From an uncultured Actinomycetota bacterium (GTDB taxonomy: Bacteria; Actinomycetota; Actinomycetes; Mycobacteriales; CADCTP01), in contig CAVXZF010000007.1 in assembly GCA_963766325.1 (NCBI GenBank), positions 93,706-157,705 on the forward strand: a stretch of 64,000 bases of DNA, given 5' to 3'. Position 1 is the stretch's first letter. Every line of letters starts with the position of its first letter. The notes under the pieces are model-generated. The model was not told the DNA's origin. It searched no databases and saw nothing but the letters and a program-made list of their open reading frames with translations. Shown in pieces: positions 3,574 to 63,581 of the stretch. The position numbers were made by a program, and so were the translations under genes.

Positions 3574-6195
3574 GTGACATCGACCGACCTGGCCGCCGAC
3601 CCGACCGGAGTGACCCGGGAGGAGCTGGACCGGCTCGTCGGCGGGGCGCACCACGACCCGCACTCGCTGCTCGGCCTGCACCCGGTGCGGGCCGCCCGGG
3701 CGGTGCCGGAGCGGGCGCCGGTCGCCTCGCCCGGGTCCGGGCAGCAGGCGATCGACACCGCCACCGACCCCACCGCCGCCCAGCCCGCCACCAACGGGGT
3801 CGCGGGTGCGGGCGCCGCCGCGGGTGCGGGCGCCGACACCGAGTCCCCGACCGAGGCCCCGACCGCCCCAGCCGCCCCAGCCGCCCCGACGGACCCGGCC
3901 GCCCAGACCTCCCCAGCCGCCCAGACCTCCCCAGCCGCCCCGACCTCCCCAGCCGCCCCGACGGATCCGGCTGCCCGGACCGCCCCAGCCGCTCCGGCCG
4001 GCGCGGGCGATCCGTCGACCGGCTCGCTGGAAGCGGGCGCCGACCCGGACCCCGGCACCGAGCCCGAGGCTGAGGTCGGCACCCTCGTGCTGCGCACCCT
4101 GCGCCCGGACGCCGGCCGGGTGGTCGCCGTCGTCGGCGACCGGCGGCACGAGCTGGACCGGGTGCACCCCGGCGGCGTGTTCGCCGGCCTGCTGCCCGGT
4201 CCGCCCGCCGACTACCGGCTCGAGGTGACCTACCCGGGCACCGGCGGCGGTCCGGACGAGACGATCACGGTCGACGACGCGTACCGGTGGCTGCCGACGC
4301 TGGGCGAGATCGACCTGCACCTGATCGGCGAGGGCCGGCACGAGCGGCTCTGGGAGGCGCTGGGCGCGCATTTCCGGACGTACGAGACCCCGCACGGGCC
4401 GGTCAGCGGCACCTCCTTCGCGGTGTGGGCGCCGAGTGCGCGGGGCGTCCGGGTCACCGGCGACTTCGACTACTGGCAGCGGCGCGCGTACCCGATGCGC
4501 TCGCTCGGCTCCAGCGGCATCTGGGAGATCTTCGTCCCGGGCGTGGTGCCCGGCGCGAAGTACAAGTTCTCCATCCTCGGCCGGGACGGCCGCTGGCGGG
4601 ACAAGGCCGACCCGCTGGCGTTCCAGACCGAGCGGACCCCGGCGACGGCGTCGGTGGTGCACAGCTCGACCCACCTGTGGTCCGACGACGAGTGGATGGC
4701 CAAGCGCGCGTCCACCCGCTGGCACGCCGCGCCGATGAGCACGTACGAGGTGCACCTCGGCTCCTGGCGCAAGGGCCTCGGCTACCGCGACGCGGCCGAC
4801 CAGCTGGCCGACTACCTGGTCGAGACCGGCTTCACCCACGTCGAGCTGCTGCCGCTGGCCGAGCACCCGTACGACGGGTCCTGGGGTTACCAGGTCACCT
4901 CGTTCTTCGCCCCGACCGCCCGCTTCGGCACCCCGGACGACTTCCGCTACTTCGTCGACCGGATGCACCAGGCCGGCATCGGCGTGATCATGGACTGGGT
5001 GCCCGGGCACTTCCCCAAGGACGAGTGGGCGCTGGCCCGCTTCGACGGCGGCCCGCTGTACGAGCACCCCGACCCGCGCCGCGGCGAGCAGCCGGACTGG
5101 GGCACGCTCGTCTTCGACTTCGGCCGCCGCGAGGTCCGCAACTTCCTGGTCGCGAACGCGCTCTACTGGCTCGAGGAGTTCCACATCGACGGGCTGCGGG
5201 TGGACGCGGTCGCCTCGATGCTCTACCTGGACTACTCCCGGCCGGCCGGGGAGTGGCTGCCCAACCAGTACGGCGGCCGGGAAAACCTGGAGGCCATCGC
5301 CTTCCTGCAGGAGATGAACGCGACCGTCTACCGACGGGTGCCGGGCGCGATCACGATCGCCGAGGAGTCGACCGCCTGGCCGGGCGTCACCCGGCCCACC
5401 CACCTCGGCGGGCTCGGCTTCGGCTTCAAGTGGAACATGGGGTGGATGCACGACACCCTGGACTACGCGTCCAAGGCGCCGATCTACCGGCAGTGGCACC
5501 ACCACCAGATGACCTTCTCGATGATGTACGCGTTCAGCGAGAACTACATGCTCCCGCTGTCGCACGACGAGGTCGTACACGGCAAGAAGTCGCTGCTCGG
5601 CCGGATGCCCGGCGACCACTGGCAGCAGGCGGCCACCCTGCGGGCGCTGTACGCGTACATGTGGGCCCATCCGGGCAAGCAGCTGCTGTTCATGGGCGGC
5701 GAGTTCGGCCAGGGCGCGGAGTGGGCCGACGGCCGGTCGCTGGACTGGTGGCTGCTGGACGACCCGCTGCACGGCGGGCTGCAGCGGCTCGTCGGCGACC
5801 TCAACCAGGCCTACCGGTCCGCCCCGGCGCTGTGGACGCAGGACACCTCGCCGGCCGGCTTCTCCTGGATCGACGCCAACGACGCCAGCAACAACACGTT
5901 CTCCTTCCTGCGCTGGGGCGACGAGGGCTCGGTGCTGGCCTGCGTGGTCAACTTCGCCAGCGTGCCGCACGAGGGCTACCGGCTCGGGCTGCCCCGCGCC
6001 GGCCGCTGGGTCGAGACGGTCAACACCGACGCCACCGTCTACGGCGGCTCCGGGGTGGGCAACATGGGCGAGGTCACCGCCGACCCCCAGCCCTGGCACG
6101 GCCAGCCCGCGTCGGTGCGGCTGCGGGTGCCGCCGCTGGGCGCCCTGTGGCTTCGCTACACCGGTGCGGCCATGCCCGACGGCACGGAGGACTGA
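3574..6195 (+). CDS. glgB: 1,4-alpha-glucan branching enzyme with a ~131-aa Pro/Ala/Thr-rich insertion in the N-terminal domain
   Basis: GH13 motifs [36 protein letters not shown] and [18 protein letters not shown] lies 4-5 nt before GTG 3574. Confidence 0.9.
3865..3990 (+). repeat. In-frame 9/18-bp repeats (gccccagcc; gcccagacctccccagcc) inside glgB
   Basis: Read directly. The repeats encode [37 protein letters not shown]. Confidence 0.85.
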
Positions 6196-7647: not shown

Positions 7648-7650
7648 CGC

Positions 7651-7673
7651 GAGCCGGCTCCACCAGCCGGCTC
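7651..7673. terminator. Hairpin between the convergent metallopeptidase and thioredoxin-domain genes
   Basis: Perfect 9-bp stem GAGCCGGCT / AGCCGGCTC with loop CCACC. The right arm overlaps the thioredoxin-gene stop codon. Confidence 0.5.
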
Positions 7674-8831: not shown

Positions 8832-10508
8832 TCAGAAGCGGGCGGGCTCGGTGTACGACCCCCACTCGTCGCGCAGGGCGCCGCAGATCTCGCCCAGGGT
8901 GGCCTCGGCGCGGGCAGCGGCGAGCATCGGCGGGACCATGTTGGCGTCGGACCGTGCCGCCTCGACCATCGCGGCCAGCGCGGACCGGACCGCGGCGTCG
9001 TCCCGGGCGGCCCGCCGGGCGGCCAGCACCCGGACCTGCTCGCGCTCCACCTCGCCGCTGATCCGCAGGATCTCCAGGTCCTCGCCCTCGCCGCCCGGGT
9101 ACGCGTTGACCCCGACGACCTTCTTGTCGCCCTTCTCCACGGCTTGCTGGTAGCGGAAGGCGGCCTCGGCGATCTCGCCCATGAACCAGCCGTCCTCGAT
9201 GCCGCGCAGGATGCCGGAGGTCATCGAGCCGTCGGTGCCCATGTCCCGGATCCGGGCGAAGATCTCCTCGGCCTGCCGCTCCAGCTCGTCGGTGAGCGCC
9301 TCGACGTACCAGGAGCCGCCGAGCGGGTCGGCGACGTTCATCACGCCGGTCTCCTCGGCGATGACCTGCTGGGTGCGCAGCGCGATCTGGGCGGCCCGCG
9401 CGCTGGGCAGCGCGAGCACCTCGTCGAGCGCGTTGGTGTGCAGCGAGTTGGTGCCGCCGAGCACGGCGGCCAGCGCCTCGACCGCGGTCCGGACGATGTT
9501 GTTGTCCGGCTGCTGCGCGGTCAGCGAGACGCCGGCGGTCTGGGTGTGGAAGCGCAGCCACTGCGCCCGCTCGGTCTTGGCGCCGTAGACGTCGCGCAGC
9601 CAGCGGGCCCAGATCCGCCGGGCGGCACGGAACTTCGCGATCTCCTCGAAGAAGTCGACGTGCGCGTCGAAGAAGAACGACAGCCCGGGCGCGAACTGCT
9701 CGACGTCCAGGCCTCGGGACAGGCCCAGCTCGACGTACCCGAACCCGTCGGCGAGGGTGAACGCGAGCTCCTGCGCGGCGGTCGAGCCAGCCTCCCGGAT
9801 GTGGTAGCCGGAGACCGACAGCGGCTTGTACGCCGGGATCTCGGCCGCGCAGAACTCCATCAGATCGCCGATGAGCCGCAGGTGCGGCTCGGGACCGAAG
9901 AGCCACTCCTTCTGCGCGATGTACTCCTTGAAGATGTCGGTCTGCAGCGTGCCGTCCAGCCCGCGCAGGCCGGTGCCCTGCCGCTCGGCGGCCACCAGAT
10001 ACATGCAGAAAACCGGCACCGCCGGCCCGCTGATCGTCATCGAGGTGGTGACGTCGCCGAGCGGGATGTCGCGGAAGAGCAGGTCCATGTCCGCGGCCGA
10101 GTCGATCGCGACCCCGCAGTGGCCGACCTCGCCCAGGCTGCGCGGGTCGTCGGAGTCGCGGCCCATCAGCGTCGGCATGTCGAAGGCGACCGACAGCCCG
10201 CCGCCGCCCTCGGCCAGGATCATCCGGTAGCGCTCGTTGGTCTGCTCGGCGTTGCCGAAGCCGGCGAACTGCCGGATCGTCCACGGCCGGCCCCGGTAGC
10301 CGGTCGGGTAGAGCCCGCGGGTGAACGGGAACTCCCCCGGCCAGCCGATCCGCTCGAAGCCGGGACCGGCGTCGCCCGGTCCGGTCGGGCCGTAGACCGG
10401 GGCCACCTCGACCCCGGACAGGGTGGTGAAGTCGGCGTCGCGCTTGCGGGCCGCGTCGTAGCGGGCCTGCCAGCGGGCACGCCCGGCGGCGATCTCGTCG
10501 GGTGTCAC
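8832..10508 (-). CDS. icmA: Acyl-CoA mutase large (substrate-binding) subunit, isobutyryl-CoA mutase IcmA-like; no B12-binding domain
   Basis: Mutase TIM-barrel sequence. The specificity positions read [11 protein letters not shown] and [10 protein letters not shown], i.e. Phe and Gln as in IcmA where methylmalonyl-CoA mutase has Tyr and Arg. Confidence 0.7.
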
Positions 10509-10614: not shown

Positions 10615-11901
10615 ATGCAGATCGGCGTGTTCTCGGTGGGCGATGTCACACCCGACCCCACCACGGGCCGGGAGCCGACCGAGGCCGAGCGGATCAAGGC
10701 GATGGTGGCCGTCGCGGTCAAGGCCGAGGAGGTCGGGCTCGACGTCTTCGCCACCGGCGAGCACCACAACCCGCCGTTCGTGCCCTCCTCGCCGACCACC
10801 CTGCTCGGCTTCGTGGCCGCACGCACGTCGCGGCTGCTGCTGTCCACGGCCACCACGCTGATCACCACCAACGACCCGGTGAAGATCGCCGAGGACTACG
10901 CGATGCTGCAGCACCTGGCCGACGGCCGGGTCGACCTCATGCTCGGCCGCGGCAACACCGGCCCCGTCTACCCGTGGTTCGGCCAGGACATCCGGACGGG
11001 CATCCCGCTGGCCGTGGAGAACTACGCGCTGCTGCGCCGGCTGTGGCGGGAGGACGTGGTCGACTGGGAGGGCCGATTCCGCACCCCGCTGCAGGGCTTC
11101 ACCTCGACCCCGCGGCCGCTGGACGGGGTGCCGCCGTTCGTCTGGCACGCCTCGATCCGGTCACCGGAGATCGCCGAGCAGGCGGCGTACTACGGCGACG
11201 GGTTCTTCCACAACAACATCTTCTGGCCGCCGTCGCACGTGCGGCGGATGGTCTCGCTGTACCGCCGGCGGTACGAGCACTACGGGCACGGCCCGGCCGC
11301 GCACGCGACCGTCGGGCTGGGCGGGCAGGTCTTCGTCCGCAAGAGCTCGCAGGACGCGGTGCGCGAGTTCCGGCCGTACTTCGACCGGGCGCCCGTGTAC
11401 GGGCACGGCCCGTCCCTGGAGGACTACATGGCCGAGACCCCGCTGACCGTGGGCAGCCCGCAGCAGGTCATCGACCGCACCCTCGGCTTCCGCGAGCTGG
11501 TCGGCGACTACCAGCGGCAGCTCTTCCTGGTCGACCACGCCGGACTGCCGCTGAAGACAGTGCTGGAGCAGCTGGACATCCTCGGCGAGGAGGTCGTGCC
11601 GGTGCTGCGGCGGGAGTTCGCCGCGCGGCGGCCGGCCGGCGTGCCGGAGGACCCGCCGACCCACGCCTCCCTGCTCGCCGACCAGCTGGCCGGGGCGGCC
11701 GAGCCGACCAGGTCGGTCCGCGCCACCGAGCCCGCCGGGACCGCCGGCGTGACCGTGGCCGGGACCGCCGGGACCGCCGGCGTGGCCGGGACCGTCGGGA
11801 CCGCCGGGACCGCCGGCGTGGCCGGGACCGTCGGCTTGGCCGGGACGACCGGCGGGGCCGGGACCGCCGTGGCGGTCGAGCCGGCCGGGGTGGCGCGATG
11901 A
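10615..11901 (+). CDS. LLM-class (luciferase-like) flavin-dependent oxidoreductase with repetitive Ala/Gly/Thr/Val C-terminal tail
   Basis: LLM fold sequence (MQIGVFSVGD.., GEHHNPPF). AAGGAG lies 6 nt before ATG 10615. The stop overlaps the next start (ATGA). Confidence 0.75.
   Translation: MQIGVFSVGDVTPDPTTGREPTEAERIKAMVAVAVKAEEVGLDVFATGEHHNPPFVPSSPTTLLGFVAARTSRLLLSTATTLITTNDPVKIAEDYAMLQHLADGRVDLMLGRGNTGPVYPWFGQDIRTGIPLAVENYALLRRLWREDVVDWEGRFRTPLQGFTSTPRPLDGVPPFVWHASIRSPEIAEQAAYYGDGFFHNNIFWPPSHVRRMVSLYRRRYEHYGHGPAAHATVGLGGQVFVRKSSQDAVREFRPYFDRAPVYGHGPSLEDYMAETPLTVGSPQQVIDRTLGFRELVGDYQRQLFLVDHAGLPLKTVLEQLDILGEEVVPVLRREFAARRPAGVPEDPPTHASLLADQLAGAAEPTRSVRATEPAGTAGVTVAGTAGTAGVAGTVGTAGTAGVAGTVGLAGTTGGAGTAVAVEPAGVAR
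11734..11871 (+). repeat. In-frame 9-bp repeat (gccgggacc and variants) at the 3' end of the LLM oxidoreductase gene
   Basis: Read directly. The repeats encode AGTAGVTVAGTAGTAGVAGTVGTAGTAGVAGTVGLAGTTGGAGTA. Confidence 0.85.
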
Positions 11902-12518
11902 CCGCCCGCCGGATCGCGGTGGTCACCGCCGGCACCGGCCGGCCGTCGGCGACCCGGCTGCTGGCCGACCGGCTGGCCGCGGCCACCGGCCAGGCGCTGG
12001 CCGAGCGCGGCCTGGCCGCCGAGGTCGAGGTGGTCGAGCTGCGCGAGCACGCCCGGGGGCTGGCCGACCACCTGGTCACCGGTTTCCCCGGCGGCGCGCT
12101 GCGGGCGGCCGTGCAGACCGTCACCGGCGCGGACGCGCTGATCGCGGTCACCCCGGTGTACGCGGCGTCGTACAGCGGGCTGTTCAAGACCTTCTTCGAC
12201 CTGCTCGACGATGACGCGCTGGCCGGCCTGCCGGTGCTGCTCGCCGCCACCGGCGGCACCGCGCGGCACTCCCTGGTGCTCGAGCACGCGATGCGCCCGC
12301 TCTTCAGCCACCTGCGCGCCCTCCCGGTGCCGACCGCGGTCTTCGCCGCGCCCGAGGACTGGGCCGGCGGCGGCGGCGACCGCACCGACCCCGGGCTGGA
12401 CCGGCGGATCGCCCGGGCCGCCGGCCAGCTGGCCGACCTGCTCGCCGGCCGCCGCCCGGAGCGCCCCGCCGACCCCTTCGCCGACCCCGTCCCCTTCGCC
12501 CAGCTCCTCACCGGCTGA
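11898..12518 (+). CDS. NAD(P)H-dependent FMN reductase (partner of the LLM oxidoreductase)
   Basis: RIAVVTAGTGRPSATRLLA and VTPVYAASYSGLFKTFFDLL are typical of this family. ATG 11898 lies in an ATGA overlap. This is only the 3' end of the 1124-aa track ORF 9144-12518. Confidence 0.7.
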   Translation: MTARRIAVVTAGTGRPSATRLLADRLAAATGQALAERGLAAEVEVVELREHARGLADHLVTGFPGGALRAAVQTVTGADALIAVTPVYAASYSGLFKTFFDLLDDDALAGLPVLLAATGGTARHSLVLEHAMRPLFSHLRALPVPTAVFAAPEDWAGGGGDRTDPGLDRRIARAAGQLADLLAGRRPERPADPFADPVPFAQLLTG

Positions 12519-12829
12519 CGGACCACCACCGCGACTGACACGTTCCCACCGCGACTGACACGTTCCCACCGCGACTGACGGCGCTGCCGCCGTCAGCCGC
12601 GGGCGGGCGCCGTCAGCCGCGGGCGGGCGCCGTCAATCGCGGGCGGGCGCCGTCAATCGCGGGCGGGCGCCGTCAATCGCGGGCGGGCGCCGTCAATCGC
12701 GGACGGAGAGCGTCAGCCGCGAGTGGGGGGCGTCAGCCGCGAGTGGGAGGCGTCAGCCGCGGACGCAGAGCGTCAGCCGCGGGTGGGGGCGTCAGCCGCG
12801 AGTGGGGGGCGTCAGGCGGTGGAGGGGGT
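12514..12829. repeat. 20-bp-period tandem array: 4 units GCGRCTGAC.. then 12 units CGTCAGCCGCG+9 nt in the opposite orientation
   Basis: Read directly. The period is exactly 20 bp except for one 19-bp unit. The array fills the whole spacer between the convergent genes. Confidence 0.95.
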
Positions 12830-13354
12830 GACGGTCTCGGAGGGGGGTTTCTGAGCGAAGTCGCCGGCCTCGGACCGGACCGAACGCAGCGCGGTGAAGA
12901 CCGCCTCCCGGCTGTCCGCCTCCAGCCCGGACAGCCCGAAGTCGATCGCCATCAGGTCGGCGGTCGCCGCCTCGGCCACCACCCGGCCCTGCTCGGTGAT
13001 CGAGGCGAGCACGCCCCGCCGGTCCGCCGGGTTGGACCGCCGCTCGACCAGCCCGGCCGCGGCCAGTCGGGTGATCGCGTTGGTCACGCTGGTCGGGTGG
13101 ACCATGAGCCGACTGCCGATCACCTTCAGCGGCAGCACGCCGGCGGTGCTGAAGTGCAGCAGCACCAGCGCCTCGTACCGGGCGAAGGTGAGTCCGTGCC
13201 GCCGCAGCACCTCGTCGTACCGTGCGAGGAGGATCTGCTGGACCCGCATGACCGATGTGGCCACCCGCATGGCGGAGGCCGGCCCCCAGGTCCGCTCCCA
13301 GATCTCCCCCGCGCGTTCGATCGGGTCGAACGGCAGATCCAGCGGCTTGGGCAC
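12812..13354 (-). CDS. MarR-family transcriptional regulator
   Basis: Winged-helix pattern LTFARYEALVLL...MVHPTSVTNAITRLAAAGLVERRSNPADRR. GTG start. Confidence 0.8.
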   Translation of the reverse strand: MPKPLDLPFDPIERAGEIWERTWGPASAMRVATSVMRVQQILLARYDEVLRRHGLTFARYEALVLLHFSTAGVLPLKVIGSRLMVHPTSVTNAITRLAAAGLVERRSNPADRRGVLASITEQGRVVAEAATADLMAIDFGLSGLEADSREAVFTALRSVRSEAGDFAQKPPSETVTPSTA

Positions 13355-22304: not shown

Positions 22305-23843
22305 GTGAGCGACGACGGTCCGGCCGACCGGGTGAGGACCGGGGTCCGGAAGGCGACGGCGGCGGCGCAGCGGGCGGCGGGTGCCGCCCGCCAGCGGCTG
22401 CGCGCGGCCGTCTTCGTGCCGGAGCCGCCGCCCGAGCCGCGGCCGAGGCGCCTGCCGACCGGTGCGGCCGGCGCCGCGACCGACGCGGCCGGGCACCGCG
22501 AGGCGGCCGGGCACCGCGACAACACCGCCGGACACCGCGACAACACCGCCGGACACCGCGACAACACCGCCGGACACCGCGACAACACCGCCGGGCTCGG
22601 CGAGGCGGCCGGGCACCGGGACCGGGCGGCCGGGCACCGGGACGGGGCCGGGCAGGCCCTCGAGGTCGCCCGGGCCGCCGGCGTGGAGACCGGGGAGGCC
22701 CGGGACGCGGCGATGCGGGGGGTGGGGACGTTCGACGGCGACCCGGTGCTGGACGAGAAGGTCCGCCACGAGGAAGCCGGCGTCGACGCGGACAACCCGT
22801 TCGGGCGGCCAGGCCGGCCGGGCAACCGGTTCTCCCCGTTCCGGGTCGGCTTCGCCTTCACCACCGGCGCGGGCGTGGCGTACCTGCTCTACCAGGCGCT
22901 CATGAGCGCGCGCTCGGTGCTGGTGCTCGTGCTGGTGGCGGCGTTCCTGGCCATCGGGCTCAACCCGATGGTGAGCCGGCTGGAGCGGATGGGCCTGCGC
23001 CGCGGTGGCGCGGTCGGGATCGTCTTCCTCGGCGTGCTCGCCTTCTTCGCCGCGTTCGGGTACGCGGTGCTCCCCCCGGTCGTGACCCAGGTCGCCAACT
23101 TCGTCGAGGCGCTGCCCGGTTACGTACGCGACCTCCAGGCGAACCCGACCGTCGCCGACCTGGACCGGCGCTTCGGGCTGGTCGACCGGCTCAACGACTA
23201 CGTCACCGGCGACCTGGGCCGGCAGGCCGCGGGCAACATCGTGAGCATCGGGCAGCAGCTGGCGGGCATCGTCTTCAAGGGCCTGACCGTCCTCATCCTC
23301 ACCCTCTACTTCCTGTCCTCGTTCAACGCGATCAAGGAGACGGCGTACCGGCTGATCCCCCGCTCGCGGCGGGCCCGGGTGACGCTGATCGGCGACGAGA
23401 TCCTCGGCCGGGTGGGCGGCTACGTGGCCGGCGCGGTGGTGGTCGCGCTGATCGCCGGCACCGCGACGCTGGTCTGGGTGAGCGCGCTGGGCATCCCGTA
23501 CCCGCTGGCGCTGGCGCTCATCGTGGCGCTCACCGACGTCATCCCGCTGATCGGCGCGACCATCGGCGCGGTGCTCGTGACCGCGGTGGCCTTCTTCGTC
23601 TCGCTGCCGGTCGGGATCGCCACCGGGATCTTCTTCATCGTCTACCAGCAAGTGGAAAACTACCTGGTCTACCCGCGGGTGATGAGCCGGTCGGTGGACG
23701 TCAATCCGGCAGCGGCCATCGTCGGCGCACTCGTCGGCGGTACCCTGCTCGGGTTCGTGGGGGCGCTACTGGCGGTGCCGGCGACGGCGGCGATACAGCT
23801 CATCCTGCGAGAGGTCCTGGTCCCGCGCCAGGACGCACAGTGA
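22305..23843 (+). CDS. AI-2E family transporter (PerM/UPF0118) with ~170-aa N-terminal extension carrying AGHRDNT heptad repeats
   Basis: Eight predicted TM segments and AI-2E-like sequence from aa ~190. GGGAGG lies 6 nt before GTG 22305. A later start (ATG near 22714) cannot be excluded. Confidence 0.7.
   Translation: MSDDGPADRVRTGVRKATAAAQRAAGAARQRLRAAVFVPEPPPEPRPRRLPTGAAGAATDAAGHREAAGHRDNTAGHRDNTAGHRDNTAGHRDNTAGLGEAAGHRDRAAGHRDGAGQALEVARAAGVETGEARDAAMRGVGTFDGDPVLDEKVRHEEAGVDADNPFGRPGRPGNRFSPFRVGFAFTTGAGVAYLLYQALMSARSVLVLVLVAAFLAIGLNPMVSRLERMGLRRGGAVGIVFLGVLAFFAAFGYAVLPPVVTQVANFVEALPGYVRDLQANPTVADLDRRFGLVDRLNDYVTGDLGRQAAGNIVSIGQQLAGIVFKGLTVLILTLYFLSSFNAIKETAYRLIPRSRRARVTLIGDEILGRVGGYVAGAVVVALIAGTATLVWVSALGIPYPLALALIVALTDVIPLIGATIGAVLVTAVAFFVSLPVGIATGIFFIVYQQVENYLVYPRVMSRSVDVNPAAAIVGALVGGTLLGFVGALLAVPATAAIQLILREVLVPRQDAQ
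22488..22649 (+). repeat. In-frame 21-bp (and 18-bp) tandem repeat encoding AGHR(D/E)xx units; three consecutive copies are identical (22527-22589)
   Basis: gccggacaccgcgacaacacc occurs three times perfectly and a fourth time with one change. Degenerate copies flank these. Confidence 0.9.
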
Positions 23844-23871: not shown

Positions 23872-24852
23872 ATGGGGATCATGTCTGACCGCACCGACCT
23901 GAGCTACATGGCCGACATGAGCATGAGCCACAACTTCGACGTGGCGCTGCGCGGCTACGACCGGCGGCAGGTCGACGACTACCTTTCCCAGCTGGAGAGC
24001 GAGCTCGCCACCCTGCGGCACGAGCGGGAGTCGGCCGGCGACCGGGTCGGGATGCTCGAGCAGCGGCTGGAGGAGCTGCAGATCGAGCTGCAGACCGCCC
24101 AGCGCAAGGTCGCCGAGTTCGAGCCGTCGTACGCGGGCCTCGGCGCCCGGGTGGAGAACATCCTCCGCCTCGCCGAGGAGGAGGCCATGAGCCTGCGCAC
24201 CGAGGCCGGTGCGCACGGCGACCGGGTCCGCGCCTCGGCCGAGGAGGACGCCAAGCGGGTCCGGGCCGAGGCCGAGCGGGAGGCGCGGGACATCGTCGGC
24301 GCCGCCGACCGGGAGGCCGGCCAGCGCCGGGCCGCGGCGATGAACGAGGCCGAGGCGCTGCGCTCCGAGGCCGGCAGGGACGCGGCCGCGGTCCGGGCCG
24401 AGGCGGCCAGCGAGCTGGAGGAGGCCCGGGCCAAGGCGGCCCAGGCGGCCAAGGACTTCGAGACCACCCTGCACCGCCGCCGGGACCAGGCCGAGCAGGA
24501 GCTGTCGGCCCGGCTGACCGAGGTGGAGCGCCGGCTCACCGAGACCAACGAGACGGCCGAGCAGATCAAGCGGGAGGCCGAGGCGCACCGGGCGGAGACC
24601 GAGCGGCGGTCCGCGCAGATCCTGGACACCGCCCGCCGGGAGGCCGAGGCGGTGGTCACCGACGCGACCGCGAAGGCGAGCCGGCAGAAGTCCGAGGTGG
24701 AGCGGGAGCTGGCCACGCTGGTCCGCCGCCGCGACAGCGTGCAGGCCCAGCTGCAGAACGTCCGCGAGATGCTCGCCACCATGACCGGCGGCTCGGTCGG
24801 CGGCGAGCAGGAGCCGGACGCGGCCGAGCCCGCTGCCCCGGCGCGCGACTGA
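23872..24852 (+). CDS. Coiled-coil protein with DivIVA-type N-terminal motif (FilP-like), paralogue of 21208-22212
   Basis: FDVALRGYDRRQVDDYLSQLESEL followed by Ala/Glu/Arg coiled-coil repeats. ATG 23881 is an alternative start. Confidence 0.6.
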   Translation: MGIMSDRTDLSYMADMSMSHNFDVALRGYDRRQVDDYLSQLESELATLRHERESAGDRVGMLEQRLEELQIELQTAQRKVAEFEPSYAGLGARVENILRLAEEEAMSLRTEAGAHGDRVRASAEEDAKRVRAEAEREARDIVGAADREAGQRRAAAMNEAEALRSEAGRDAAAVRAEAASELEEARAKAAQAAKDFETTLHRRRDQAEQELSARLTEVERRLTETNETAEQIKREAEAHRAETERRSAQILDTARREAEAVVTDATAKASRQKSEVERELATLVRRRDSVQAQLQNVREMLATMTGGSVGGEQEPDAAEPAAPARD

Positions 24853-25040
24853 CGGATCGCCGCCGCGGCTGACGGATCGCCGCCGCGACTGACGGACCCA
24901 GCGCCGTCAGTCGCGATCGCGCGGCGTCAGTCGCGATCGCGCGGCGTCAGTCGCGATCGCGCGGCGTCAGTCGCGATCGCGGGAGGTCAGTCACCGAGCC
25001 GCGGCGTCAGTCACGGAGCCGCGGCGTCAGTCGGGGGCGG
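24845..25040. repeat. 20-bp-period tandem array: 3 units GCGRCTGACGGATCGCCGCC then 7 units CGTCAGTCGCGATCGCGCGG in the opposite orientation
   Basis: Read directly. The central perfect inverted repeat is 24884-24895 / 24904-24915. Confidence 0.95.
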
Positions 25041-25980
25041 CTCCGGTGAGCTGGTCCAGCGCGGCGAGGTCGTCGGGGGAGGGTTCCCAGTCGCCGGCGC
25101 GGGCGTTGGCCCGGACCTGGTCCGATGAGGTCGCACCGGCGATCACCGAGGCGACGGCGGGCTGGGCGGCGAGCCCGCCGATCGCGACGTCGATCATGCC
25201 CAGGCCGCGGTCGCGGGCGTACGCGTCCAGCCCCTCGAGCACGTCCCACGGGGCGGCGTCGTACAGGTCGCGCTTGCGGTCGGCGATCCGGGTGCCGGCC
25301 GGCGGCTCCTCGCCGCGCCGGTACTTCCCGGTCAGCAGCCCGTTGGCCAGCGGGAAGAACGGCAGCAGGCCGACCCCGTACGCCTCGCAGGCCGGCACCA
25401 GCTCGGCCTCGACCCGGCGGTCGAGCAGGCTGTACTCGTTCTGCGCGCTGACGAATCGCTCCGCGCCCAGCCCGGCGGCGACGTGGTCGGCCTGCGCGAC
25501 CTGCCAGCCGGCGAAGTTGGACGAGCCGACGTAGCGCACCTTGCCGGCCCGGACCAGCTCGTCCAGCGCGGCCAGCGTCTCGCCGACCGGGGTGAGCCCG
25601 TCGGGCCGGTGGTACTGGTACAGGTCGATGTGGTCGGTGCGCAGCCGGCGCAGCGACGCCTCCACCGCGGTCCGGATGTAGCGCCGCGACCCGCGGGCGC
25701 CCCAGTCGGGCCCGTTGACCCCGCGCATGTCCATGCCGAACTTGGTGGCCAGCACCACCTCGTCCCGCCGCCCGTCGAGCACCTCGCCGAGGATCTCCTC
25801 GGACTGCCCGGGATGGCCGCCGTACGTGTCCGCGACGTCGAGCAGGGTGATCCCGGCGTCCAGGGCGGCGTCGAGGACCTTGCGGGTGCCGGCGACGTCG
25901 AGGCTGCGACCGAGGTTGTTGCAGCCGAGCCCGACCACCGAGACGGTCAGGCCGGAGCGGCCGAGGGGGCGGTAGCGCAC
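25027..25980 (-). CDS. Aldo/keto reductase
   Basis: AKR family sequence (MRYRPLGRSGLTVSVVGLGCNNLG, IDLYQYHRPD, VRYVGSSNF). Confidence 0.85.
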   Translation of the reverse strand: MRYRPLGRSGLTVSVVGLGCNNLGRSLDVAGTRKVLDAALDAGITLLDVADTYGGHPGQSEEILGEVLDGRRDEVVLATKFGMDMRGVNGPDWGARGSRRYIRTAVEASLRRLRTDHIDLYQYHRPDGLTPVGETLAALDELVRAGKVRYVGSSNFAGWQVAQADHVAAGLGAERFVSAQNEYSLLDRRVEAELVPACEAYGVGLLPFFPLANGLLTGKYRRGEEPPAGTRIADRKRDLYDAAPWDVLEGLDAYARDRGLGMIDVAIGGLAAQPAVASVIAGATSSDQVRANARAGDWEPSPDDLAALDQLTGAAPD

Positions 25981-39311: not shown

Positions 39312-39406
39312 TGTGATCGGTCACCCGGCGGGGCCGTCAGGCGAGCACCCGGCGAGGGCGTCAGGCGAGCACCCGGCGGGGCCGTCAGGCGAGCACGGTG
39401 CCGCGG
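39312..39406. repeat. 24-bp tandem repeat (about 3.5 copies) CGTCAGGCGAGCACCCGGCGGGGC; the last copy is the 3' end and stop of the STAS gene
   Basis: Read directly. Copies start at 39335, 39359 and 39383. Confidence 0.9.
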
Positions 39407-39699
39407 CGCTCCACCACGATGACCCGGTCCAGCCGGGTCAGCGCGAGCAGCCGGGCGACCCGGGGCACGGCGTCGACCAGCACCAGCTCGCGACCCTGCA
39501 GCCGGGCTCGCCGGTGGGCCGCGACCAGGACGCCGAGACCGGTCGCGTCGAGCAGCTCGACCCCGGACAGGTCCACCACCAGCCGGCCGGATCCGCGGGT
39601 GAGCGCCTCGTGCAGCGCCTCGCGCGCCGCCGCCGCTCCCCGCGCGTCGAGCCGGCCGACCAGCTCGACCCCACCGTCCTGCGTCACGTTCGCTCGCAT
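39385..39699 (-). CDS. STAS-domain anti-sigma-factor antagonist
   Basis: LVVDLSGVELLDATGLGVLVAAHRRARLQGRELVLV pattern. GGGAGG lies 6 nt before ATG 39699. The track start 39738 is less likely. Confidence 0.7.
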   Translation of the reverse strand: MRANVTQDGGVELVGRLDARGAAAAREALHEALTRGSGRLVVDLSGVELLDATGLGVLVAAHRRARLQGRELVLVDAVPRVARLLALTRLDRVIVVERRGTVLA

Positions 39700-39851
39700 G
39701 GCGTCCCTCCCCCGCGCTAACGCCGGTACTGAGCACACATGATCGGGCGCTGATACGTCGCGTCCTCGCAGGGATCGTCATCGGATCGTCACCTGGGTGA
39801 CCGTCCGTGTTCGGCAGGCCCGTCGGCCGCGGGCAGTGCCAGACTGGACAC

Positions 39852-41713: not shown

Positions 41714-42376
41714 GTGCCCGCCCGGCCCTACGTGCTGCTGAGTTGCGCCATGTCACTGGACGGGTGCCTGGACGACGCGACCGACCAGCGGCTGGTGCTG
41801 TCCGGGCCGGCCGACCTGGACCGGGTGGACGCCGAGCGGGCCGGCTGCGACGCCATCGTGGTCGGCGCGGAGACGGTCCGCCGCGACGACCCGCGGCTGG
41901 AGGTGCGCTCGCCGGCCCGGCGCGCGGCCCGGATCGCGGCCGGGCGGCCGCCGTCGCCGCTGCGGGTGGTGCTGACCCGCGGTGGCGGGCTGGACCCCGG
42001 GGCGCGGCTGTTCGGCGGCGGGGCGACGCCGCTGGTCTACTGCGCCAGCGCGGGGCTGGATCAGGCCCGGGAGCGGCTCGGCGCGGTGGCCACCGTGGCC
42101 GACGCCGGCCCGGCCGGTGACCTCCACGGCGTGCTGGCCGACCTGGCCGGGCGGGGCGTGCGGCGGCTGATGGTGGAGGGCGGCAGCGCGGTGCTGGCCG
42201 GCTTCCTCGACGCCGGGCTGGCCGACGAGCTGCAGCTGGCCGTTGCGCCGCTGCTGGTCGGTGACCCGCGGGCGCCGCGCTTCCTCGGGAGGCCGGGGCG
42301 GCCCCGGCTGCTCGACCTGCGGGCGGTCGGGGACGCGGCGCTGCTGCGGTACGCGCTGTCGGACCGGGCCTCGTGA
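41714..42376 (+). CDS. RibD C-terminal-domain reductase (5-amino-6-(5-phosphoribosylamino)uracil reductase-like / DHFR-fold)
   Basis: RPYVLLSCAMSLDGCLDD...RAGCDAIVVGAETVRRDDPRL...RRLMVEGGSAVLAGFL. Confidence 0.7.
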   Translation: MPARPYVLLSCAMSLDGCLDDATDQRLVLSGPADLDRVDAERAGCDAIVVGAETVRRDDPRLEVRSPARRAARIAAGRPPSPLRVVLTRGGGLDPGARLFGGGATPLVYCASAGLDQARERLGAVATVADAGPAGDLHGVLADLAGRGVRRLMVEGGSAVLAGFLDAGLADELQLAVAPLLVGDPRAPRFLGRPGRPRLLDLRAVGDAALLRYALSDRAS

Positions 42377-57838: not shown

Positions 57839-58057
57839 CTAGCTGTTGCGCTGGCGCTTGCCGTAGCGCTGCTCGAAGCGGGCCACCCGGCCACCGGTGT
57901 CCAGAATCTTCTGCTTGCCGGTGTAGAAGGGGTGGCACTGGGAGCACACGTCGGCGTGGATCACGCCGTTCTTCGCGGTGCTCCGCGTCGTGAACGAGGC
58001 CCCGCAGGAGCAGGTCACCGTCGTCTCGACGTAGTCGGGGTGGATTCCGGACTTCAC
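57839..58057 (-). CDS. rpmE: 50S ribosomal protein L31 (zinc-ribbon type)
   Basis: [19 protein letters not shown]...[13 protein letters not shown]. Confidence 0.95.
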
Positions 58058-58197
58058 GAATGGGTCCTCTCGTCGGTGGCCGCCGGGTCGCCTGCGCCGT
58101 TGATGAACGGGGCCGGGCGTGAACCGGAGCCGAGGTCGTGCCCAGTGTGCCAGAGCGGCGCACCGCTGCGTTCAACGGACGGCACGGTCAGGTATTC

Positions 58198-63276: not shown

Positions 63277-63581
63277 CCACGGCCGAGCAACGTCACGCAC
63301 GCCGACTGACGGCTCCCGGCCTCCGCTGACGGCACCAGCGCCACGGCCGAGCAACGTCACGCACCCGCGACTGACGGCTCCCGCTCGCCAGTGACGGCAC
63401 CAGCGACGTCAGCCGCGGACGCCCGACGTCAGTCGCGGACGCCCCGACGTCAGCCGCGGACGCCCGACGTCAGCCGCGGACGCCCGCCGTCAGTCGCGGA
63501 CGCCCGACGTCAGTCGCGGACGCCCGACGTCAGTCGGGGGCGCCGGCAGTCAGGGGGGAGCCACGGGGGCGGGTCAGGCGG
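63277..63581. repeat. Composite repeat: 2 copies of a ~64-bp unit (each carrying two CTGACGG/GTGACGG cores) followed by ~9 units of CGTCAGYCGCGGACGCCCGA (20-21 bp)
   Basis: Read directly. Lies between the hom stop (63574) and the thrC start (63247). Confidence 0.95.

Follow-up and report, generated by a model that had tools for sequence, protein, structure and literature searches.

Opposed arms of a stop-bearing 20-nt repeat at the 3' ends of convergent genes in an uncultured Actinomycetota bacterium: a candidate REP/BIME-like element

Two convergent genes of an uncultured, high-GC actinomycete, one for a DivIVA-domain coiled-coil protein and one for an aldo/keto reductase (AKR), end within a single tandem array that turns around an inverted center, which raises the question of what kind of element can supply the stop codons of both neighbors and whether it is one of a family. 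Below, the window is the whole 64-kb stretch of DNA that was analyzed.

Layout of the array and of its sister arrays

The array is a block of ~200 bases (24844-25043) in which one 20-nt unit is read three times forward and, beyond an 8-nt loop, seven times in reverse, with the period held at exactly 20 nt in both arms (Table 1). This layout of 3 + 7 units had been proposed in a preliminary description and is borne out by the sequence, every coordinate matching, and the perfect 12-bp inverted repeat at the center, formed by CGCGACTGACGG (24884-24895) and CCGTCAGTCGCG (24904-24915) around the 8-nt loop, was found at the same place; the list of open reading frames confirms that both genes stop on the outermost units. 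The three TGA codons of the left arm fall at 1, 0, and 2 modulo 3 and so occupy all three frames, and the loop read with its closing pair, GACCCAGCGC, belongs to a recurrent type, GCRCCAGCGC. In the right arm units 1 to 3 are identical and unit 4 is nearly so, units 5 and 6 form a subtype, and unit 7, from which the reductase takes its final residues and its stop codon, is degenerate, in agreement with the progressive decay that had been described for the three units nearest that gene. The tandem repeats finder TRF scores the array at 99 and 178. Across the window there are 22 pairs of cores spaced by 20 nt, compared with none in 200 first-order shuffles, and 44 core matches against 19.9 expected, a count that none of 100 shuffles reaches; the array is far beyond chance.

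Three arrays in the window share the core CGCGRCTGACG, and each of them abuts at least one gene 3' end. The first, which had been placed at 12514-12829, is real and measures slightly longer, and the proposal that it and the array studied here are two members of one repeat family is supported; the 11-bp core that they were said to share is common as a family core but is not identical, being CGTCAGTCGCG here and CGTCAGCCGCG or CGTCAATCGCG at 12.5 kb. At this first array the FMN reductase gene (+) stops at 12516-12518 and the MarR gene (-) at 12812-14, and the outermost unit adds five residues, TPSTA*, to MarR. The third array contains a 60-nt secondary duplication and lies in a co-directional spacer, downstream of hom (ACT-domain) and with thrC as the next gene. 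A location between convergent genes is therefore not the rule that it had seemed, since both this 63.4-kb array and its ortholog in a related contig (L155) sit between hom and thrC. A further repeat in the window, a threefold 24-nt duplication that takes in the stop codon of a STAS-domain gene, was considered as a member of the family and set aside, because its core differs (CTCGCCTGACGG) and an inverted arm is missing; it is an example of plain 3'-end duplication.

Table 1. Positions in the window of the array, its flanking genes, and the other repeats discussed
Feature	Position	Strand	Remarks
Sister array 1	12509..12830		3-4 forward and 12 reverse units, between FMN reductase and MarR
DivIVA-domain coiled-coil gene, 326 aa	23872..24852	+	Pfam PF05103, E 3.6e-8; stop TGA 24850-24852, in the outermost left unit
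Left arm, 3 sense units	24844..24895	+	CGCGRCTGACGG + 8 nt each; TGACG (hence TGA) starts 24850, 24870, 24890
Central hairpin loop, 8 nt	24896..24903		ACCCAGCG; reads GACCCAGCGC with the closing pair
Right arm, 7 units	24904..25043	-	Minus-strand reading nnnnnnnnnCGCGACTGACGG; CGTCA starts 24905, 24925, 24945, 24965, 24985, 25005, 25025 (unit 5, GGTCA)
Aldo/keto reductase gene, 317 aa	25027..25980	-	Pfam PF00248, E 8.9e-65; stop TCA 25027-25029, in the outermost right unit
24-nt x3 single-arm tail duplication	39322..39396	-	Includes the STAS-domain gene stop; core CTCGCCTGACGG
Sister array 3	63306..63560		~8 units in the sense of upstream hom, loop, then 2-4 opposite units

Gene termini and turnover of the spacers

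The gene to the left of the array had been called FilP-like, of which the DivIVA-domain coiled-coil assignment (PF05103) stands and nothing narrower is supported. Orthologous termini had been named as the place to look for signs that the repeat replaced ancestral gene ends, and they give a different answer for each of the two genes. In a C-terminal alignment of 120 homologs of the reductase, the outgroup orthologs have conserved endings, ...LDEIVPRGTLAA or ...IVPPG, and the reductases of the array-bearing clade have short hypervariable tails, the last codon of which is the core codon that precedes TGA (GAC, GAG, CAG, or GGC). The last residue tracks the core variant, as in ...APD* (GACTGA) in the window, where the repeat-derived tail is GAAPD*, and ...PPE* (GAGTGA) in a related metagenome-assembled genome (MAG), L025. 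The DivIVA-like protein does not bear out replacement, as L025, L028, and L149 share its ...RD* end (CGCGACTGA), and in them it lies outside the array or the array is absent. To judge from these alignments, the DivIVA-like terminus ...ARD* is ancestral and the reductase C terminus is the one that has been rewritten. More widely, the comparison shows flanking ORFs ending on unit TGA codons, with outer units rewriting the C-terminal tails of both AKR and MarR.

The nearest named relatives are "Mycobacteriales bacterium" MAGs. Two related MAGs, L025 and L028, with reductases 87% and 85% identical, have the same architecture between the two genes, with the core CGCGAGTGACG in both arms and with spacers unrelated to those of the window. 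The distance between the DivIVA-like and AKR genes is 174 nt in the window, 230 in L025, 194 in L028, and 195 in the P0004 genome; it falls to 61 nt with decayed remnants in L149 and to 1 nt in the P0010 genome. An unrelated 18-nt repeat occupies this spacer in L026 and L027 (seven or six copies), and L149 has an unrelated 18-nt repeat in four copies. The FMN reductase/MarR site is empty in L153, in which the genes overlap by 4 nt, and the hom/thrC spacer is an empty 41 nt in L156 and L157 (ThrC 93% identical) and holds 15 + 3 units with core GGGTGACG in L155. Such comparisons of orthologous spacers show that arrays have been gained, lost, expanded, and contracted between close relatives, and that spacer sequences turn over fully while the core, the period, the complementarity of the arms, and often the loop persist; the core variant tracks the genome and not the locus.

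One reading takes the arrays as purely neutral or selfish junk with no function, local 3'-end tandem duplications that survive only in 3'-3' or 3'-5' spacers, with two tails sharing the preferred stop context CTGACG by chance and intrastrand template switching making the arms complementary. Presence and absence do differ among close relatives, the same genomes carry unrelated tail and spacer repeats (39322-39396, L026/L027, and L149), and stop-region duplications of two to three copies occur in Streptomyces and others (L003, L010, L016, L017, and L024). The preliminary description had itself allowed that the overlap would be coincidental if the stop context were simply the one that the genome prefers, and this is half the case: with 17 of 41 crude gene calls, C-TGA-C is the context in which stops most often lie, so an overlap of array and stop is easily arrived at, but the shared 11-12-nt core is left unexplained, and of the seven calls among the 41 with CTGACG four are at arrays. 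Independent duplications would not yield a single 11-12-nt core shared by six arms from three loci, nor the recurrent GCRCCAGCGC loop, exact 20-nt period, and fixed center in at least ~20 contigs, and a core that survives complete replacement of its spacers and follows the genome rather than the locus is also contrary to this account, which we regard as possible but doubtful.

Selection for additional stop codons in bacteria finds no support in one study (PMC6764699), which agrees with a neutral origin and argues against a fail-safe translational stop, in which TGA codons in all frames would catch read-through or frameshifted ribosomes. That three units span three frames, and that three is the modal arm length, would suit such a function, but 7 to 15 copies far exceed the need, close relatives manage without arrays, and the inverted arm and the conserved CGCG and loop are left unexplained, making it a very improbable explanation.

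Spread of the family and its possible agents

We found no published description of this repeat family. It is dispersed both within the source genome and across many contigs. A metagenome scan for three CGTCANYCG motifs at 20-nt spacing, which fixes TGACG and the 20-nt step in one arm only and so defines the sample, returned at least ~20 independent high-GC contig loci that carry the opposite arm at the same period, on the plan (TGACG units)n - N10 - (CGTCA units)m with the fixed center TGACG-N10-CGTCA, along with many irrelevant 10-nt or low-GC repeats. Among the loci listed the modal array has 3 + 3 units, and one locus (L039) is a 1.9-kb cluster of ~10 modules. Two classes of array can be distinguished, each with its own core, spacer, and loop, and the asymmetric loop GCRCCAGCGC recurs in unrelated loci. 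With five L039 centers set aside, at least one ORF runs into 17 of the 20 metagenome and window arrays. Incoming ORFs stop within 1 nt of 10 + 20k nt from the center in 18 of 27 cases, where ~15% would be expected by chance. TGAC is kept even in the most decayed units, and the arrays contain units of 19 and 21 nt, blocks of identical units, and higher-order periods of 35 and 60 nt. A scan of a genome collection (from which the source species is absent) for two CGTCAGYCGCG cores 20 nt apart gave only 24 single matches in scattered taxa, most of them duplications of stop regions in two to three copies. The array pattern had no match among plasmids, and among viral contigs only two chance matches, in coding DNA of 50% GC.

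A core that is common to separate loci would be accounted for by a non-autonomous, REPIN- or MITE-like mobile element, in which an enzyme of its own, such as a RAYT-like nuclease of the HUH/Y1 kind recognizing the central hairpin and loop, moves or copies a 3 + 3 module into gene ends and slippage only tunes the copy number. In favor of it, close relatives have compact empty sites (the 4-nt overlap and the 1-nt and 41-nt spacers), each of the two classes keeps its core and asymmetric loop from locus to locus, the 3 + 3 module is modal and ~10 modules are clustered in L039, and the genome-specific core is reminiscent of REPIN-RAYT coevolution (bioRxiv 10.1101/2021.07.10.451892). Against this, no transposase was identified in the sequences compared, the outer units fade into the flanks and leave neither a target-site duplication nor a sharp boundary to be seen, plasmids gave no match and viral contigs only chance ones, and the presence of different cores in the same spacers could equally represent old occupancy with concerted evolution, so that a mobile element in this strict sense seems rather unlikely.

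An improbable further reading is that the units are phased duplex-DNA sites for a sequence-specific protein, with arms opposed in polarity, that would either obstruct transcription or replication in one direction, as a polar roadblock, or act between genes as an element of nucleoid structure or DNA topology. As 20 bp is about two helical turns, all cores would lie on one face of the helix, and it is consistent with this that the period is strictly kept while the spacer sequence is free, that TGAC is retained even in the most decayed units, that many units have no pairing partner, and that the arm following the upstream gene is much the longer one in co-directional spacers (8 units against 2-4 in the window, 15 against 3 in L155). 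However, no candidate protein is known, covariation of the stem would not be required, and the arrays are dispensable in close relatives. BldD- and CRP-type operators were set aside, since their half-site orientation and spacing presumably do not match the array.

Folding of the array and its place among known repeats

The arms are complementary and in register, so a long imperfect hairpin is possible; slipped alternative hairpins or a long imperfect cruciform had been suggested. Folded alone as RNA the central hairpin has a predicted energy of -23.1 kcal/mol, and the segment 24835-25050 folds at -135 kcal/mol on the + strand (z -3.5) and at -129 kcal/mol on the - strand (z -2.9). Across 21 centers, 82.8% of stem cells are paired compared with 76.7% after shuffling, a value that none of 500 shuffles reaches, and the covariation score is 0.221 against 0.140 (1 of 500), with stem pairs 14/37, 15/36, and 21/30 switching between AU and GC or between GC and CG, although the covariation depends on roughly three subfamilies and could reflect copying from arm to arm (quasi-palindrome correction) instead of selection. 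Some arrays have mismatched cores, GAG against GAC in L061 and an A.C mismatch in array 1 of the window, and selection for pairing is therefore not strict. In the sense direction, coding potential through the array is ruled out, as every unit carries a TGA and no ORF can run through it.

A strong GC-rich hairpin just past both stop codons would also be the mark of a canonical, bidirectional intrinsic terminator, which consists of a hairpin followed by a U-tract of 7-9 nt. Here the hairpin is present and the T-run absent: neither arm is followed by a U-tract on its strand, a terminator scan of 24300-25600 returned 0 sites, and Rfam gave nothing at any array at the gathering threshold and only chance noise of the miRNA type at E<=10. 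Because mycobacterial RNA polymerase requires a U-tract for intrinsic termination (PMC3993855), we consider a canonical terminator the least credible of the explanations, to the point of near dismissal. Rut-like C-rich tails were also considered and rejected, as the composition of the sense tails is inconsistent: C and G are roughly balanced in arrays 2 and 3, and L155 shows the same. TRIT is a conserved mycobacterial terminator.

A likeness is found in the 3' stem-loops of Actinobacteria, which have long stems, often lack a U-rich tail, and show the highest Rho dependence (PMC13613805), and 3' structures may stabilize RNA or define its ends without terminating transcription (PMC3993855). The array resembles these in placing a long GC-rich stem right after the stops and in sharing it between two convergent genes. 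Ordinary actinobacterial 3' hairpins, such as GAGCCGGCT/AGCCGGCTC at 7648-7671 in the window, are however unique sequences, whereas the stem of the array is a dispersed and iterated 20-nt module with a conserved core and loop. Unniraman, Mitra, and Nagaraja reportedly described U-less actinobacterial terminators as "I-shaped," or as "X-shaped" when between convergent genes.

A close parallel is offered by the REP, BIME, and REPIN elements of Proteobacteria (PMC3733652, PMC3116915), short GC-rich palindromes that are repeated outside genes in high copy number, most densely downstream of genes and where genes converge, and that are clustered and strain-variable with lineage-specific sequence variants, thought to act as RNA 3' hairpins, and sometimes overlapping gene ends. 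A RAYT (Y1/HUH) transposase flanked by the repeats goes with REPIN-RAYT systems; no RAYT turned up beside the arrays in the sequences compared. The array family is likewise high in copy, extragenic, and mostly 3' of genes. The differences are that a single REP folds into a hairpin (stem 5-13 bp) whose GTAG or CGTC tag stays unpaired, whereas in the array CGTC lies within the stem and GTAG is absent; that the REP/BIME unit is an imperfect palindrome of 20-40 nt, whereas the array unit is not palindromic and pairs only between arms; that BIMEs alternate in orientation, whereas the array has direct runs at exactly 20 nt and a single switch; and that a TGA in the sense of incoming genes is a feature of the array and not of REPs. 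Head-to-tail REP dimers are "negligible" for CGTC REPs, and neither super-family, GTAG- or CGTC-tagged, is reported from Actinobacteria (PMC3733652; PMC3116915). CGTC-tagged REPs proper, which came into question because array units begin with CGTCA, are ruled out on stem, loop, and tag structure, orientation pattern, and taxon range.

Other repeats share single features. The TAACTGA heptamer repeats of Beggiatoaceae, Cyanobacteria, and Bacteroidetes (PMC4679880) are also dispersed intergenic tandem repeats with a stop-bearing unit and a period not divisible by 3. Their forward copies close all frames and can overlap only the ends of ORFs, and they likewise vary in copy number and have repeat-free orthologous spacers in close relatives; they differ in their 7-nt AT-rich unit, in having no inverted arm or hairpin, in their usual position just upstream of starts, and in their phyla, so the likeness is one of analogy and not of membership. 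The Coxiella MITEs, reported to insert at gene ends and rewrite C termini (PMC5896051), are like the array a palindromic non-coding module that can alter the 3' ends of ORFs. As for MITEs in general, the array has inverted arms and empty sites (L153, L156), but its outer units decay with no duplication recognized, its arms are internally tandem-repetitive, and it has neither a known signature of terminal inverted repeats and target-site duplication nor a parent IS. The MIRU/VNTR loci of Mycobacterium (Supply et al. 1997) are said to be intergenic tandem repeats of polymorphic copy number that overlap flanking stops and starts. MIRU units are 46-101 bp long, direct only, and located inside operons, with small ORFs translationally coupled to their neighbors; the array has a 20-nt unit and opposed arms, and MIRUs have no inverted arm or 20-nt period. 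CRISPR was rejected, as it has repeats of 24-48 nt and unique spacers of similar length, whereas the array has a core of 11-12 nt and spacers of 8-9 nt that are identical within an arm. In design the array also resembles the engineered omega interposon, as both present translation stops and a hairpin symmetrically on either side.

Our preferred explanation, to which we give about an even chance, is that the array represents a family of palindromic repeats of the REP/BIME-like kind, dispersed in uncultured high-GC Actinomycetota, that grows by local slippage, is tolerated at gene 3' ends, and acts as a hairpin in RNA. Its ground plan is a central hairpin with a stem of 12-13 bp (CGCG-R-S-TGACGG) that closes a loop of 8 nt, often CACCAGCG-like, and has no U-tract; the two arms are iterated head to tail at exactly 20 nt, mostly as 3 + 3 and here as 3 + 7. 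The arms would grow by replication slippage or unequal exchange between neighboring units, as is suggested by the identical-unit blocks, the 19- and 21-nt units, and the 35- and 60-nt periods, with homogenization probably strongest beside the hairpin. Persistence at gene 3' ends may follow from the TGA that each unit presents in the sense of the incoming gene: 20 is not divisible by 3, so that three units suffice to close every frame, and therefore an array that encroaches on an ORF would only trim or rewrite a few C-terminal residues. Both converging transcripts would receive a long-stem, U-less 3' hairpin of the kind typical of Actinobacteria, which could define or protect the transcript end or aid factor-dependent termination and the insulation of neighbors, and spread to new loci could proceed through a dedicated enzyme or through gene conversion between loci. 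Intergenic mobile elements are reported to be placed non-randomly in bacterial genomes (PMC2942039).

Several observations fit the REP/BIME-like explanation poorly, above all in the RNA role, which we infer. The requirement of mycobacterial RNA polymerase for a U-tract (PMC3993855) counts against it, the surplus of unpaired units (7 against 3, 12 against 4, and 15 against 3) has no role in a hairpin model, and a hairpin in the hom-thrC spacer is awkward if both genes are cotranscribed. Indeed, a simple 3' hairpin needs neither a conserved asymmetric loop nor a fixed 20-nt period, and these two features hint at a factor that recognizes the array. One bolder possibility, which we offer tentatively and think unlikely, is that a dedicated system, acting in trans and specific to the lineage, both makes the arrays and works on them. 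It could be a nuclease or recombinase that recognizes the hairpin and loop, or else a sequence-specific binding protein that coevolves with the core, and it would install and maintain the arrays at gene 3' ends throughout the genome, which would make them a new class of domesticated mobile element; the array would then serve as a symmetric insulator, combining all-frame stops with a transcript-end structure or polar roadblock, and continual rewriting of C termini would be a by-product.

If arrays are as frequent throughout the genome as in the window (three in 64 kb), they would be one of the main kinds of repeat in uncultured soil Actinomycetota of a group that is widespread. In practical terms they shift annotated stop codons and break short-read assemblies, as seen from contigs that end inside arrays, and they would suit strain typing as VNTR markers. 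They show concretely how enzymes that are conserved elsewhere in their sequence can vary rapidly at the C terminus, and the pairing of a stop in each unit with a period not divisible by three would be a tolerance mechanism that lets a repeat occupy gene ends harmlessly. If the hairpins mark transcript ends, the arrays would provide a sequence-defined handle on 3'-end formation in the absence of a U-tract, a process that is poorly understood in high-GC Actinobacteria.

Build of the array and its relatives in the window

The repeat between the DivIVA-like gene (called FilP-like in the preliminary description) and the aldo/keto reductase gene is a confirmed array of 20-nt units, in which two arms face each other across a loop, and its coordinates, its three plus seven units, and its exact 20-nt period match the sequence as first described, as do the gene ends in the outermost units when set against the ORF list. 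The perfect 12-bp central stem that had been proposed is present as the inverted repeat 24884-24895/24904-24915, and the RNA fold of this central hairpin alone has an energy of −23.1 kcal/mol. The array is far above chance expectation, with TRF scores of 99 and 178; pairs of the conserved core spaced 20 nt apart number 22 in the window versus 0 in 200 shuffles, and 44 core matches are observed where 19.9 are expected. Because 20 is 2 mod 3, three successive units present TGA in all three frames.

Coordinates and composition of the array at 24844-25043, its flanking genes, and further repeats at gene ends in the window
Feature	Position	Strand	Description
DivIVA-domain coiled-coil protein gene	23872-24852	+	326 aa (Pfam); stop is the TGA of the first unit
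Left arm	TGACG at 24850, 24870, 24890		3 units CGCGRCTGACGG (+8 nt)
Loop	24896-24903		8 nt, ACCCAGCG
Right arm	CGTCA from 24905 to 25025		7 units CCGTCAGTCGCG (+8 nt); unit 5 is GGTCA
Aldo/keto reductase gene	25027-25980	-	317 aa (Pfam); stop is the TCA of the last unit
Window array 1	12509-12830		3-4 forward and 12 reverse units, between FMN reductase (+) and MarR regulator (-)
Window array 3	63306-63560		~8 units, loop, 2-4 opposite units; 3' of hom, before thrC, same strand
24-nt repeat	39322-39396		CACCCGGCGGGGCCGTCAGGCGAG x3; duplicates stop codon and 3' flank of STAS-domain gene 39385-39738 (-)

The description of this locus as the second array of one family holds, with the core CGCGRCTGACG common to all six arms of the three window arrays and the spacers within units being arm-specific. 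Every one of the three has a gene 3' end, though a location between convergent genes is not the rule, since array 3 sits in the codirectional hom/thrC spacer and convergent genes are therefore not required. The 24-nt repeat at the STAS-domain gene was rejected as a family member; it has a different core and a single arm with no inverted partner and is therefore a plain tail duplication. Long tandem repeats also lie in frame within coding sequence at 3851-4000 (18/36 nt), 11732-11869 (36 nt), 22438-22654 (21/42 nt), and 59894-60176 (15/30/63 nt), an example of such coding repeats being the AGHRDNT repeat in a long open frame that enters the gene, predicted to encode a transporter, upstream of the DivIVA-like gene.

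Turnover in related genomes and the termini of flanking genes

The same architecture occupies the DivIVA-like/reductase spacer in the related loci L025 (reductase 87% identical) and L028 (85%), with the left-arm core CGCGAGTGACG and the right-arm core CGTCACTCGCG, a C-to-G change made on both arms, and with unit spacers that bear no resemblance to those of the window array. In L149 (85%) the intergenic spacer is 61 nt and holds only decayed remnants, and in the genome encoding the homologue P0010 it is 1 nt. More distantly related strains, L026 (10978-11096) and L027 (10978-11078), with reductases at 76%, have at this site a direct repeat of 18 nt (GGCGCCGCCCGGAAGCGA), unrelated to the array, in seven and six copies, respectively, a copy-number polymorphism between genomes with identical reductase proteins. 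The array 1 site is empty in L153, where the FMN_red and MarR genes overlap by 4 nt. At hom/thrC, L156 and L157, the nearest relatives by ThrC (93%), have a 41-nt spacer without repeats, and L155 (88%) has, at 9546-9880, 15 sense units (GGCGGGTGACGGCGCYGCS), a loop, and three opposite units with core GGCGGGTGACG. Arrays are present, absent, or resized among related MAGs at three loci, and gain, loss, and resizing are therefore fast; by these sequences, it is the genome and not the locus that sets the core variant. The conserved thrC leader farther downstream in L155 (ctggtcgggTGACGatg) includes an octamer, GGGTGACG, that is also found in the array.

The proposal that the repeat has replaced gene termini stands for the reductase and fails for the DivIVA-like gene. 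In an alignment of 120 reductase homologues, outgroup proteins keep a conserved C-terminus (...LDEIVPRGTLAA or ...IVPPG), and the nearest 22 have short, hypervariable tails that end in D, E, Q, or G, the residues encoded directly before TGA in the core variants, so that the tails vary with the core: the window reductase ends in ...APD* (GACTGA) and that of L025 in ...PPE* (GAGTGA). The window MarR is five residues longer (TPSTA*), and the outermost unit of array 1 encodes this extension, which is missing in L152 and L153. The ...RD* end of the DivIVA-like protein (CGCGACTGA) is unchanged in L025, L028, and L149, in which the repeats do not reach it or are absent, and is therefore the ancestral terminus. 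In the full set of family arrays examined, the stops of 18 among 27 incoming ORFs are within 1 nt of 10+20k nt off the centre, that is, on a unit TGA. The embedding of stops had been considered potentially coincidental if their context were simply the preferred one; C-TGA-C is indeed the commonest context in the window genome (17 of 41 crude gene calls), and this preference makes overlap of array and stop easier but does not account for the 12-nt core.

In every array the loop-side units differ little or not at all, the gene-side units are the most decayed, and TGAC is retained even in these. Runs of identical variants (e.g., four CAATCG units in array 1), units of 19 and 21 nt, and higher-order periods (L025, 35 nt; array 3, 60 nt, with a thrC leader copy included), together with the loop-side homogeneity, suggest that local slippage or unequal exchange shapes the arrays.

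A dispersed family in metagenomes and cultured Actinobacteria

In the metagenome scan, three CGTCANYCG spaced 20 nt apart were the only fixed pattern, and the matches listed included much noise, but at least about 20 high-GC loci among them share the family plan beyond that pattern. Unforced by the scan, in the matches listed, are the opposite arm with its 20-nt period and the fixed centre TGACG-N10-CGTCA, and the commonest architecture among them is 3+3. Two classes can be told apart. Class I combines the core CGCGA(C/G)TGACGG with a loop approximating GCRCCAGCGC; it includes the present array (window array 2), window array 3, L028, L061, L102, and L134. Class II, which includes L039 and L047, is marked by the core CGGGTGACGA, an ACTTCGG spacer, and a loop approximating AGAAACAAGT. 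The 1.9-kb metagenome contig L039 (1-1897) is without coding signal and contains about ten 3+3 palindromic modules in succession (core CGGTGACGA, spacer ACTTCGG, loop AGAAACAAGT), with linkers of 60-100 nt between them, also repeated. Nothing like the arrays was found in the viral contigs and plasmids searched, and the family is not described in the literature searched. Several short-read metagenome contigs (L044, L062, L068, L081, and L152) end in array interiors; as such contigs start or stop inside arrays, the repeats break assemblies.

Duplications of the stop region in two or three 20-nt copies (CGCGRCTGACG...) are present in L003, L010, L016, L017, and L024, from Streptomyces, Kitasatospora, Sphaerisporangium, and one Streptosporangiaceae MAG, and small tail duplications of the motif therefore occur in cultured Actinobacteria. 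Independent gene-end duplications were rejected as the origin of the arrays because they do not explain why the arrays have core, loop, period, and centre geometry in common; judged on these shared sequence features, the array at 24844-25043 belongs to a dispersed family.

Hairpin structure and relation to known elements

Over 21 centres, the 13-bp stem is paired in 82.8% of cells versus 76.7% in shuffles (0 of 500 reaching the value), its covariation score is 0.221 versus 0.140 (reached by 1 of 500), and three stem pairs show AU/GC or GC/CG exchanges, though the covariation signal comes from a few sub-families only and arm-to-arm copying could give the same signal. Folded as RNA, the whole array forms a rod of 10-12-bp helices with internal loops between, at −135 kcal/mol (z −3.5) on the + strand and −129 kcal/mol (z −2.9) on the − strand, which bears out the hairpin potential noted initially. 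Neither a U-tract nor a promoter-like site was found at the array, and an Rfam search of the window arrays gave no match. Elsewhere, a tight convergent pair has between its stops, at 7648-7671, a hairpin of the ordinary, unique kind (GAGCCGGCT/AGCCGGCTC), unlike the hairpins that the repeats build; upstream of the small gene 57839-58057, at 58078-58133 (-), is an L31-Actinobacteria ribosomal protein leader (RF03158, 52 bits); and the ARAGORN tRNA-Ser call at 42006-42079 (+), which has the unusual anticodon ACT and lies within the high-GC3 ORF 41714-42376, is probably a false positive. Phased G-runs (GGGCGGGCG, GGGGCGGGGCGG) recur every 20 nt on one strand at 12590-12700 and in the right arms of L025, L028, L102, and L107, where they would give one arm G-quadruplex potential in DNA and the adjacent gene's transcript a C-rich tail.

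We rate the family as akin to REP/BIME/MITE-like palindromic repeats. Like REP/BIME elements, it is dispersed at gene 3' ends, dispensable and variable, lineage-specific in sequence variant, and predicted to form hairpins. It differs in that half-stems are iterated directly at 20 nt with only one orientation switch, in lacking a GTAG or CGTC tag, and in that every unit bears a stop codon toward incoming genes; in the CGTC and GTAG REP super-families, head-to-tail arrangements are negligible, and there is no report of them from Actinobacteria (PMC3733652). In function, the stop-bearing units come closest to the TAACTGA heptamer repeat (PMC4679880). Stem-loops at actinobacterial 3' ends are long-stemmed and in many cases have no U-rich tail, and Actinobacteria is the phylum in which Rho dependence is highest (PMC13613805). 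Mycobacterial RNAP requires a U-tract for termination, so hairpins without one may instead mark processed ends or make RNA more stable (PMC3993855). From this published work, we infer that the array may serve as a transcript-end structure rather than as a canonical terminator. Room for a hypothetical trans-acting factor or dedicated mobility enzyme, neither of which turned up in the analysis, is left by features that a hairpin can do without: the strict period, the asymmetric conserved loop, the core that is specific to the genome, and the long arms of unpaired units.
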